In this document: positions 47,011 to 61,003 of the stretch, piece after piece
How the letters are laid out: each line of letters starts with the position of its first letter
Position numbering within the stretch: the first letter of the stretch is position 1
From: a virus
IMG/VR virus record: IMGVR_UViG_3300038696_000205
Location: 55,323-119,322 of that record
Length of the DNA: 64,000 nt
Direction: 5' to 3' (one strand)
Notes under the pieces: model-generated
Database searches by the model: none
What the model was told of the DNA's origin: nothing
Seen by the model: only the letters and a program-made list of their open reading frames with translations
Made by a program: the position numbers and the translations under genes

Positions 47011-47121
47011 TTATATTCCTGTTTCGGTTTTAGATGACGTTATACACAACATTCCCAGTCTGCTCGGCTTTTGGCCTTGCGGATACTGCTTCCCTTGATA
47101 TGTAGTTGTATAATTTTTCAT
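47011..47121 (-). CDS. leader peptide C (36 aa) MKNYTTTYQGKQYPQGQKPSRLGMLCITSSKTETGI
   Basis: Hand translation; A-rich start; residues 4-19 only Y/T/Q/G/K/P. Confidence 0.85.
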   Translation of the reverse strand: MKNYTTTYQGKQYPQGQKPSRLGMLCITSSKTETGI

Positions 47122-55139: not shown

Positions 55140-55203
55140 ATCTTTGTATTTTTATAATTAAATACAAAGATAATATAAATATTTCAATAAAGCAAGTATT
55201 TTT

Positions 55204-55241
55204 GAGATATAGTAGGAATCGAATCCTAATAAACCCATCTC
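55204..55241 (-). ncRNA. tRNA minihelix-like remnant (acceptor + T-arm)
   Basis: GAGATGG...TAGGA-TTCGATT-CCTA...ATATCTC. Confidence 0.35.
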
Positions 55242-55254
55242 AGTGCAAATTTTG

Positions 55255-55393
55255 TGGAGACGACAGGGTTCGAACCTGTGGCGCACCCTTCCTTCTAGGC
55301 CGCTCTACCTTAAGGTTAATTAATACCAATTTTATAGTTTTATGTACAATCATTCTATAAAATTCTCTATGCGACCCTCTGAGCTACATCTCC
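55255..55393 (-). pseudogene. tRNA-like gene with ~70-nt D-loop insertion and degenerate anticodon arm
   Basis: GGAGATG/CGTCTCC, GCTC...GAGC split by an AT-rich insert, canonical T-arm. Confidence 0.5.
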
Positions 55394-55412
55394 GTTTTTA
55401 ATCTTAATCTAG

Positions 55413-55484
55413 TAACCCCAACGGGATTCGAACCCGTGACTTCACCGTGAAAGGGTGATGACTTAACCGCTTGTCGATAGGGCT
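55413..55484 (-). tRNA. tRNA-Glu(TTC)
   Basis: TCACC-CT-TTC-AC-GGTGA. Confidence 0.92.
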
Positions 55485-55618
55485 AGTTGGGTAGAATCAT
55501 GATGCACCATGTCTACCGTGTCCAAGTTGCATGTTCTAAAACTTCACAGAACAGAGGCTTACTTGACCCAATTATTTATTATGATACAAATATAACACTT
55601 TTATTTAACCTAATTATT

Positions 55619-56251
55619 TTAAATTATTTTTCTGCCCAATCTCCAACCATCTGGTATTAAATCACCTTTCATTATCTTTTTACTCTCGATTTCATTGGTT
55701 ATCCAACATGTACCAAATTGAGAATTTATCCCCCCCTTACCTTGGCCAGTCTTGATTTTACTAATTTTTAATTTAGTTTCTTCAGAATGTTGTTTACCAG
55801 TGAAAGTATCATATTTAATTTTACCATTTTTGTGATTATCTTTCATAGTGTTAGATGATATTTTACTAATTTTAGCTCTGTGGTCCAAGTCATTTTTTAA
55901 TTTTAAAGCATTTGCTAAACCACCAGCCTTTGAACATCTAAAATGATGGTCATCTAACATGAATCCTCCCCCACCAACAACTAAATTCATACAATCAATC
56001 TTAACTACCTCATTTAGAGTGACTAATTCCTCTTCTCGTTTCTTTAATTCTTCCCTAGAAACACAATATTCAAGTATTTCTCTAATAAAATTCTCTTTAC
56101 CATGTTTTCTTACAGCTAACCTTAATCTATTTCCACTACCTAAATAACCATCATCTAAATTTGATGTACTATGCATCCCTATATAATAACGACCACTTAA
56201 TACATTTGTGGTCTTATATATGAAATGATATTTTTTTTCTTTTCTCGCCAT
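55619..56251 (-). CDS. GIY-YIG (Seg-like) homing endonuclease with NUMOD3
   Basis: FIYKTTN...YYIGMH...YLGSG; HSEETKLKIS. Confidence 0.88.
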   Translation of the reverse strand: MARKEKKYHFIYKTTNVLSGRYYIGMHSTSNLDDGYLGSGNRLRLAVRKHGKENFIREILEYCVSREELKKREEELVTLNEVVKIDCMNLVVGGGGFMLDDHHFRCSKAGGLANALKLKNDLDHRAKISKISSNTMKDNHKNGKIKYDTFTGKQHSEETKLKISKIKTGQGKGGINSQFGTCWITNEIESKKIMKGDLIPDGWRLGRKII

Positions 56252-56311
56252 ATCTATATCTTTTTAATATAAATATCCAGAAAAACGTTAAAGTACAAAA
56301 ACGTGTCCAGG

Positions 56312-56386
56312 CGGTTTAGACGGGACTCGAACCCGCAAATCTCGCACCGTGACAGGGTGGAACATACGCCAATATGCTGCTAAACC
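56312..56386 (-). tRNA. tRNA-Asp(GTC)
   Basis: CCACC-CT-GTC-AC-GGTGC, G73. Confidence 0.9.
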
Positions 56387-56414
56387 GTTTAATAGTCTTT
56401 CCTATTAGTCTTTG

Positions 56415-56487
56415 TACTCCCGAAGGGAATCGAACCCTCATTTGGTGATAGAAAGTCACCCGTACTGAGCCATTATACGACAGGAGC
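56415..56487 (-). tRNA. tRNA-Glu(TTC)
   Basis: GGTGA-CT-TTC-TA-TCACC. Confidence 0.9.
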
Positions 56488-56491
56488 AAAT

Positions 56492-56566
56492 TGGTGGGGA
56501 GAGAGGGAGTCGAACCCTCGACGCTTGCCGCTTCAAGACAACGCTCTACCACTGAGCTACCTCCCC
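56492..56566 (-). tRNA. tRNA-Phe(GAA)
   Basis: TTGTC-TT-GAA-GC-GGCAA, encoded CCA. Confidence 0.92.
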
Positions 56567-56605
56567 AATTATAATACTAACAAAATGTCAAAAAACTATT
56601 TCCAG

Positions 56606-56679
56606 TGGAGGTAAACGGTATCGAACCGTCCTCAGGTTGGTTGCAAACCAATCTCGCCTTGCCTTGGACATGTACCCCC
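56606..56679 (-). tRNA. tRNA-Ala(TGC)
   Basis: G3:U70; TTGG-TT-TGC-AA-CCAA. Confidence 0.88.
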
Positions 56680-56692
56680 AATTATTAATAAC

Positions 56693-56722
56693 AAAAAAGC
56701 CCGAATCTTTCGAGTCGGGCTT
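56693..56722 (-). terminator. attenuator terminator B
   Basis: AAGCCCGACTC-GAAA-GATTCGGGC-TTTTTT. Confidence 0.9.
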
Positions 56723-56749
56723 GCTATTTAGTTTAGTTGTTATGAACAC

Positions 56750-56839
56750 TTAACTTATATCAATACTCGACCTTCCCAGGCTAAAATCCGCCTCGGCTGC
56801 TTCTATAGCAAAATCAAATATGTTGTTAAATGTTTTCAT
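56750..56839 (-). CDS. leader peptide B (29 aa) MKTFNNIFDFAIEAAEADFSLGRSSIDIS
   Basis: Hand translation; residues 8-19 are 11/12 F/D/A/E. Confidence 0.85.
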   Translation of the reverse strand: MKTFNNIFDFAIEAAEADFSLGRSSIDIS

Positions 56840-57103
56840 AATTTCTATTATTTATTCGTTAATGGATATTAATATCCTTTTTAATTAAATATGTGCTTTT
56901 TCTTTAAAAGTACATTTATTTTTTAATACACTGCAAATATACTACATTAAAATGTAATAATCAAGCTTTTTTGAAATTATTTTTAATTTATTTCAATGCT
57001 CTAATAAGAAGTTTGGATGTTGTCCAAGTTAATTCTCCGTTTGTTTCCATTTCCACTTCGGCAGAGTCTATGATTCTATTAATTTGTTTTTCCGATAATT
57101 CCT

Positions 57104-57379
57104 TCATTTTCTGATTTTAATTTCTTTTGCATTGGTATAGTCTACGACAACTAACTCACCAGAGTTATTTACGTGTGGCTTTTGCTCCACTTCATCTAAG
57201 TTAACCTCAACACCTCTTTCATTTAAAATTTCAAGACAAACCTTTTCGATTTCAGCCTTATCACTTCTATCACACTTATTAGCGTAATCTATAATGTTAA
57301 TCAAGTGGTCACTTTCCAATTCGCTTAACGGGGCAACGTTACCTTCGTAATTCTGCCATAATGTATCTTTTGTTATCAT
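57104..57379 (-). CDS. hypothetical protein
   Basis: ORF track; promoter at ~57398. Confidence 0.65.
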   Translation of the reverse strand: MITKDTLWQNYEGNVAPLSELESDHLINIIDYANKCDRSDKAEIEKVCLEILNERGVEVNLDEVEQKPHVNNSGELVVVDYTNAKEIKIRK

Positions 57380-57622
57380 ACTATTTTATTTTATACTGCA
57401 AATATACATCAAATAAATGTAACTCACAAGTTTTTTTATTTAAAATTCTATTTTAACTGGAAATTTATCCCCATCATCACCATAATACCATGTATCAAAA
57501 CTATCAACCAACCTTGTTGCGATTTGCTCGTTGGTCCATGAGGACCTGATATCAAAACCATCGGATACTGATTCAATAAAGTTTAAATAAACGGTAAAAC
57601 CAAATAATTTTGAATAAAGTTT

Positions 57623-60919: not shown

Positions 60920-61003
60920 TCAATTAATTCCACAGCCCGACACGCTCACTAAGACTAGTAAACATAAACAAAGGACAGATAGTATGTTATTAATTGTTTT
61001 CAT
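60920..61003 (-). CDS. leader peptide A (27 aa) MKTINNILSVLCLCLLVLVSVSGCGIN
   Basis: Hand translation; residues 8-19 are 11/12 L/V/C. Confidence 0.82.
   Translation of the reverse strand: MKTINNILSVLCLCLLVLVSVSGCGIN

Follow-up and report, generated by a model that had tools for sequence, protein, structure and literature searches.

Among the enterobacterial leader-peptide attenuators (trpL, hisL, pheL, leuL), those of ilvGMEDA (Leu/Val/Ile) and thr (Thr/Ile) are multivalent, while the Escherichia coli pheST attenuator with its pheM leader controls phenylalanyl-tRNA synthetase. Regulation of the tRNA genes common in large phages has, to our knowledge, been little studied. We analyzed a locus, attenuator B, that lies ahead of such genes in a 64,000-nt stretch of the genome of an uncultured, Bacteroidota-type phage (IMG/VR record IMGVR_UViG_3300038696_000205, positions 55,323 to 119,322), referred to below as the window; the locus and all its features are on the minus strand. 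Judging from sequence, the locus is likely a ribosome-mediated (leader-peptide), multivalent transcription attenuator of the trp type which controls expression of the phage tRNA operon behind it. We regard the element as real and conserved; a regulatory function is very probable, and mediation by the ribosome is probable. The parts, their geometry, the alternative pairings, and the conservation and covariation in relatives are the direct basis of this assignment; leader translation, stalling, coupling with RNA polymerase, and the physiological trigger are steps that we infer.

The enterobacterial leader-peptide attenuators, a class for which PMC9723704 cites the review of Gollnick and Babitzke (2002), share with the locus a short leader in which the sensed codons are abundant, 2:3 and 3:4 pairings that exclude each other, and a terminator before the genes; their 1:2 pairing has a predicted counterpart in the locus, and those of ilvGMEDA and thr also sense more than one amino acid. 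They regulate biosynthetic enzymes, whereas the proposed targets here are tRNA genes and a homing endonuclease gene, whose tRNA product would relieve the stall directly. The locus also differs from them in being phage-borne and in its Bacteroidota-type context (TAnnTTTG promoter, no Shine–Dalgarno sequence). The difference in target (tRNAs, not biosynthesis or synthetase genes) is a novelty and not a mechanistic failure.

The pheST system resembles the locus in that the target of its Phe-codon leader attenuator belongs to the decoding machinery and not to a biosynthetic pathway; unlike the locus, it has a synthetase target, a single amino acid, and a host gene with no tRNA array. T-box riboswitches are also terminator/antiterminator switches responding to the state of a specific tRNA, but in them the RNA itself binds the uncharged tRNA, there is only one specifier codon, and no open reading frame (ORF) is translated. 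The nearest published example found of a stress-induced accessory tRNA operon was the long one of Anabaena PCC 7120, described as induced under translational stress (PMC8421152) and as repressed by TrcR (PMC10272220). There, too, an accessory tRNA array is off until translation is impaired, but control is exerted by a protein repressor on a cellular megaplasmid, without a codon-matched leader ORF. Flavobacterium has TAnnTTTG promoters, absent Shine–Dalgarno sequences, and signs of leader-peptide attenuation (PMC9723704), which makes leader-peptide attenuation plausible in a Bacteroidota-type host. A cmscan search of 55200-57100 (E <= 1) for the Rfam leader families (His, Thr, Trp, Leu, Phe) and T-box returned only tRNA matches and noise, and a full-text literature search found no publication in which tRNA genes, those of phages included, are under the control of a leader peptide.

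The following features were recognized from the promoter to the terminator of the locus:

56964-56934, minus strand: promoter of the Bacteroidota sigma-A type, with TTG (56964-56962), a 20-nt spacer, and the -7 box TATATTTG (56941-56934)
56930-56840, minus strand: A-rich 5' untranslated region (UTR) of ~90 nt, from the putative transcription start
56877-56864, minus strand: perfect 14-nt palindrome/hairpin GGATATTAATATCC within the leader B 5' UTR
56839-56750, minus strand: leader B ORF of 29 codons plus TAA, with the product MKTFNNIFDFAIEAAEADFSLGRSSIDIS, ATG at 56839, and TAA at 56752-56750
56818-56783, minus strand: regulatory codons 8-19, F D F A I E A A E A D F
56821-56810, minus strand: region 1, AUAUUUGAUUUU, over the Ile-Phe-Asp-Phe codons, forming the predicted 1:2 helix with region 2 in untranslated RNA
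56796-56776, minus strand: small hairpin within the ORF, CC-GGC...GCC-GG, conserved in the family comparison and possibly a pause hairpin
56774-56757, minus strand: region 2, AAGGUCGAGUAUUGAUAU, with the core GGUCGAGUAUUG at 56772-56761, the 5' strand of the antiterminator
56727-56713, minus strand: region 3, AUAGCAAGCCCGACU, serving the antiterminator as 3' strand and the terminator as 5' arm
56722-56693, minus strand: intrinsic terminator AAGCCCGACUC / GAAA / GAUUCGGGCUU followed by U6, with the U-tract at 56698-56693

No Shine–Dalgarno sequence was found in the 5' UTR of leader B (56930-56840). A preliminary description of this DNA had given the leader peptide as MKTFNNIFDFAIEAAEADF; these are indeed the first 19 residues from the ATG at 56839, but the frame continues for ten more codons, to 29 in total. 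The terminator that it had placed before the tRNAs was confirmed (stem 56722-56697): in the hairpin (-15.1 kcal/mol, z -3.9), 10 pairs and one mismatch make up the stem and GAAA the loop; U6 follows, and the hairpin begins 27 nt 3' of the leader stop codon.

The codon content of the leader is extreme. In the long ORFs of the phage, F+D+A+E account for 21.7% of residues; against this background, 11 of the 12 codons at positions 8-19 of leader B belong to {F,D,A,E} (binomial tail 4.7e-7), and the runner-up in the same test among the 734 small ORFs of the 119-kb contig scores 8. As described previously, all four Ala codons (GCT, GCA, GCC, and GCG) and both Glu codons (GAA and GAG) are present in the leader. 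The codon preferences of the phage include TTT, GAT, and GAA. These amino acids correspond to the tRNA genes that follow the terminator:

56679-56606, minus strand: atypical tRNA-Ala(UGC), the first gene of the array, called by relaxed ARAGORN only
56566-56492, minus strand: tRNA-Phe(GAA), found by ARAGORN and the Rfam tRNA model
56487-56414, minus strand: tRNA-Glu(UUC), found by ARAGORN and the Rfam tRNA model
56386-56310, minus strand: tRNA-Asp(GUC), found by ARAGORN and the Rfam tRNA model
56251-55619, minus strand: SegB/SegE-like GIY-YIG/NUMOD3 homing endonuclease gene, inserted in the array between tRNA-Asp and the second tRNA-Glu
55484-55412, minus strand: second tRNA-Glu(UUC), found by ARAGORN and the Rfam tRNA model

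The order Ala-Phe-Glu-Asp-Glu is thus as first proposed, with the reservation that the tRNA-Ala(UGC) at 56679-56606 is atypical: it has G3:U70 and a D stem of just 2 bp, and neither default ARAGORN nor the Rfam tRNA model called it. The gap from the U-tract to this gene is 13 nt (14 nt in the preliminary description), too short for a promoter. No second full promoter was found between 56934 and 55195, and expression of the array therefore depends on terminator read-through. A lone -7 box at 55594-55587, upstream of the second tRNA-Glu, may be a separate weak promoter for this last gene.

In the proposed mechanism, transcription would begin at the promoter 56964-56934, and a ribosome would translate the 29-codon leader. 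If the Phe, Asp, Ala, and Glu codons are decoded fast, the ribosome would reach the TAA and mask region 2 (GGUCGAGUAUUG), so that the terminator (3:4) would form and transcription would halt 13 nt short of the first tRNA. Slow decoding, as with scarce, cleaved, or uncharged tRNAs, would instead stall the ribosome on codons 8-18, where it would sit on region 1; region 2 would then be free to pair with the 5' arm of the terminator (2:3), and RNA polymerase would continue into the genes for the Ala, Phe, Glu, and Asp tRNAs (and the second Glu tRNA). Since these tRNAs are the ones that would relieve the stall, the circuit would constitute direct negative feedback on tRNA supply. Together, the 1:2, 2:3, and 3:4 pairings correspond to a trp-like four-region layout, the 1:2 member being a predicted one.

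The spacing of the parts agrees with this scheme. In coordinates of the ORF, the regulatory codons occupy nt 22-57, region 2 nt 68-79, and the stop codon nt 88-90. Ribosomes usually cover ~12 nt downstream of the A site. With this standard footprint, a ribosome with its A site on codons 8-18 should end before nt 67 and leave region 2 free, and a ribosome at the stop codon would cover it.

The full-length leader RNA was strongly structured (z -5.2), with region 1 (AUAUUUGAUUUU) paired to region 2 (AAGGUCGAGUAU) and the terminator formed. After folding at equilibrium had favoured the terminator (see below), the analysis moved to nascent-RNA folds and an estimate of the refolding barrier. The nascent RNAs had their 5' end at nt 45, 57, or 66 and their 3' end at the terminator loop, mimicking the moment when a ribosome is on the regulatory codons and the 3' arm of the terminator does not yet exist. 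Their minimum-energy structure was the antiterminator (GGUCG:CGACU, GU:GC, UUG:CAA, AUA:UAU), capped in the window by a hairpin starting at the stop codon. It contains the pairing noted earlier between GGTCGAGTATTG (56772-56761) and CAAGCCCGACT (56723-56713). The antiterminator ties up ~9 of the 11 nt of the terminator 5' arm; antiterminator and terminator are mutually exclusive.

Two exact-pattern scans of IMG/VR gave 16 further distinct contigs with leader B, which together with the window make a family of 17 copies with the consensus M[KR]T..NIFDFA[FI][FE](F)AAEAD.SLGRS.I..S. The comparison with homologous phages that had been suggested at the outset came out in favour of the attenuator: its layout recurs in all 16 related contigs, a terminator follows the leader in 17 of 17 copies (11 different terminator sequences), and Phe/Glu/Asp/Ala tRNAs are found downstream wherever the contig extends far enough. 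In spite of the 11 terminator sequences, the same two-helix antiterminator was the nascent-RNA fold in 17 of 17 copies. Helix a joins GGUCR (leader codons 23-24) to YGRCC at the apex of the terminator 5' arm, helix b joins UUGUCA to UGAUAA directly upstream of the terminator, and the family fold has an apical hairpin at the stop codon. In the family consensus, region 2 is also predicted to pair with UGAUU of the Phe-Asp-Phe codons (UGAUU:RGUCR), which is invariant.

Both helices are contained in the RNAalifold consensus. In the alignment, 93.5% of the cells were paired, vs 88.6 +/- 1.0 in shuffles (0/500 as high), and sliding the antiterminator partner lowered this value to 17-48%. Compensatory double changes were found in 4 of the 11 antiterminator pairs. 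In most copies, some or all of the CC partner of the leader GG falls within the terminator loop, a position at which the terminator can do without it.

The closest relative, L010 (2584-2733, minus strand), has two mismatches to the window over the leader region, to a few bases past the stop codon. Beyond this point, the two are unrelated: L010 has the terminator AAACUCGAUA/GAAA/UAUCGAGUUU and, as its first tRNA, a canonical tRNA-Ala. Its different terminator is still complementary to region 2, via UCGAGU:ACUCGA. On sequence comparison with the window (56693-56839), there is a recombination joint just 3' of the stop codon, inside the attenuator. The palindrome GGATATTAATATCC (56877-56864) is also present in L010, while the other relatives, with shorter UTRs, do not have it.

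Three relatives, L065 (10579-10726, minus strand), L072 (10686-10831, plus strand), and L074 (6230-6373, plus strand), have a 1-nt deletion before region 2, which frameshifts the last 6-9 codons (..GRSTIVKS to ..GGQLLS(KK) or ..GGHVLSKS). They retain the nucleotides GGTCA.CTATTGTC and a nearby stop codon. Indels in the codon-rich 5' part of leader B are multiples of three. The 5' part of the leader therefore behaves as coding sequence, and its 3' part as RNA structure.

Outside IMG/VR, blastn of 55300-57400 against 50,697 phage records revealed tRNA and Seg-endonuclease similarity in cultured phages but no leader. The B-leader pattern had 32 matches in bacterial and archaeal genomes, which were rejected as chance ones because similarity was confined to the pattern (nhmmer; the best match, L095, was inspected); no prophage copy of leader B was found among them, nor any pointer to the host.

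Two sister leaders were identified in the window:

61003-60863, minus strand: leader A, MKTINNILSVLCLCLLVLVSVSGCGIN, with ATG at 61003, followed by a terminator and Cys-Val-Leu-Val-Leu tRNAs
47121-46940, minus strand: leader C, MKNYTTTYQGKQYPQGQKP..., with ATG at 47121, followed by a terminator and Pro, Gln x3, Tyr, Lys, Thr, and Gly tRNAs

The MKTxNNI start earlier ascribed to leaders A and B is common to both, as MKT[F/I]NNI, including the leader at 61003. When the first 45-60 nt of leaders A and C are blocked, folding at equilibrium already yields the antiterminator. For all loci, the match between leader and array was expressed as the fraction of leader-core residues with a tRNA in the following array: it was 0.79 for class A, 0.89 for class B, and 0.97 for class C, vs <=0.05 for the arrays of other classes. 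Across phages, class C leaders keep their composition with a shuffled residue order, which points to selection on the codons present and not on the peptide sequence. Leader A was also considered as a lipoprotein signal peptide; this was rejected, since the peptide has nothing after the Cys and leaders of this class go with Cys/Val/Leu arrays.

All sequence-level features expected of an attenuator (a promoter, a codon-rich ORF, a terminator, and an alternative pairing) are thus present, and the interpretation put forward in the preliminary description is supported at that level. Several observations weigh against it. Energetically, the terminator was the minimum-energy state at every simulated ribosome position when equilibrium folding was performed with a sliding ribosome block; the case therefore cannot rest on thermodynamic competition, and of the folding check proposed earlier, only the nascent-RNA fold, not the equilibrium competition, gave the antiterminator. 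The antiterminator of the window has -11.9 kcal/mol (z -2.26; 3 of 200 shuffles fold equally well), compared with -15.1 for the terminator hairpin alone and -19.6 kcal/mol for the whole terminated state, which requires the switch to be a kinetic one. For refolding of the antiterminator into the terminator, a heuristic direct-path estimate gave a barrier of 8.8 kcal/mol, at the bottom end of the family range of 7-16. The antiterminator is among the weakest in the family, and its helix a has just 5 bp, one of them G-U. A terminator favoured at equilibrium is also typical of classical attenuators such as that of trp.

Among the comparative observations that count against the attenuator, the strands of the 1:2 helix are (near-)invariant and hence carry no covariation signal, and the 16 relatives share ancestry, so that their codon/tRNA matches are not independent occurrences. 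The residue order of the leader B peptide core is well conserved, as a functional or arrest peptide would also predict. The first tRNA of the window is non-canonical. Some relatives' arrays hold His, Ser, Gln, and Met tRNAs without a counterpart in the leader core; Asn tRNA occurs in some of them as well, and Asn codons are found only in the shared N-terminal prefix.

The equilibrium folds and the weak antiterminator of the window would suit a constitutive leaky terminator, with promoter, small ORF, and terminator fixing a low level of read-through, an alternative pairing that regulates nothing, and an ORF that is there by coincidence or encodes a small peptide. Such an arrangement does not account for the extreme composition match or for three leader classes each standing ahead of matching arrays. 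Nor would it explain why the antiterminator is kept with covariation over 11 unrelated terminators, down to loop nucleotides that the terminator can spare, and why the stop codon remains within the antiterminator despite frameshifts; we consider this explanation improbable. An RNA-only switch, T-box-like or with a protein-dependent antiterminator, is very unlikely: here, uncharged tRNA or a phage or host protein would stabilise the antiterminator by binding to the leader RNA, and the ORF would be untranslated. The strong structure of the RNA (z -5.2) is in line with such a switch, as is the 3' part of the ORF, where the RNA and not the peptide is conserved. However, the leaders preserve the start codon, the reading frame (their indels remain in frame), and the position of the stop; no match to T-box or any further Rfam family was obtained at E <= 1; and the codon content reflects four different tRNAs, more than one specifier codon could account for.

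Arrest peptides such as TnaC, SecM, and ErmCL stall the ribosome in response to a signal, and the conserved peptide of leader B (NIFDFA..AAEAD) might likewise be active by itself, as a nascent arrest peptide responding to another signal or as a small trans-acting protein, with the tRNA match being secondary. The residue order of the B core, well conserved in 17 of 17 copies, fits this possibility, and leader peptides with trans functions are known, e.g., peTrpL (PMC7298713). However, core substitutions and one-codon insertions mostly stay within F, E, and A, and much of the nucleotide conservation of the core is accounted for by its predicted pairing with region 2. Class C changes its residue order and keeps its composition, the C-terminal third of leader B is not conserved as a peptide, and a trans function leaves the terminator/antiterminator wiring unexplained. 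An active peptide is thus an unlikely explanation in our opinion. A ribosome-mediated attenuator sensing Phe, Asp, Ala, and Glu decoding remains the preferred reading of the locus.

Not all tRNA genes of the window and its relatives are arranged in this way. A tRNA with the anticodon CUA (a suppressor of the amber type; 53031-52959, minus strand) has a TTG-N20-TATATTTG promoter immediately upstream and neither a leader nor a terminator, and the phage may read TAG as a sense codon. Any tRNAs of the relatives found via a neighbouring 222-aa protein (L045-L057) are preceded by plain promoters or lack a recognisable leader; attenuators are thus not universal in the wider group.

Some other genes near the arrays were recorded. 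Just 3' of the last tRNA-Glu, at 55393-55255 (minus strand), the Rfam tRNA model has an end-to-end match of 31.5 bits over 139 nt, which looks like a tRNA-like gene interrupted by a ~65-nt insert; ARAGORN made no call there. A gene for Tpt1/KptA RNA 2'-phosphotransferase (54885-54358, minus strand; Pfam E 1e-49) adjoins the tRNA arrays and hints at tRNA splicing or repair, fitting the interrupted or odd tRNA-like genes nearby. An 83-aa ORF without a Pfam match (46911-46660, minus strand) lies between the leader C terminator and tRNA-Pro. If the attenuator model is right, small ORFs inside the units (the endonuclease, 56251-55619, and the 83-aa ORF, 46911-46660) would also be gated.

With leaders A and C taken into account, the phage may carry at least three tRNA modules (Cys/Val/Leu; Ala/Phe/Glu/Asp; and Pro/Gln/Tyr/Lys/Thr/Gly), each with a codon-matched attenuator sensing decoding capacity in a self-correcting manner; we put this forward tentatively, as a possibility somewhat short of even. 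If the modular reading is true, each module would switch on only the set of tRNAs that the infected cell is losing, through host tRNA-cleaving defences or a collapse of the host tRNA pool, and phages in general would then have a way to supply tRNAs on demand, a strategy that we did not find in print.

For the attenuator itself, if the interpretation is true, the trp/his paradigm would be extended to RNA genes and to Bacteroidota phages. The 17 natural variants are ready-made compensatory mutants, and such elements would be compact, codon-programmable sensors for synthetic biology. They would also give a direct read-out of the host tRNAs that become limiting during infection, which bears on tRNA-targeting defence systems. 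The phage would gauge decoding speed codon by codon and feed the result back into tRNA synthesis, a closed loop simpler than any known tRNA control.

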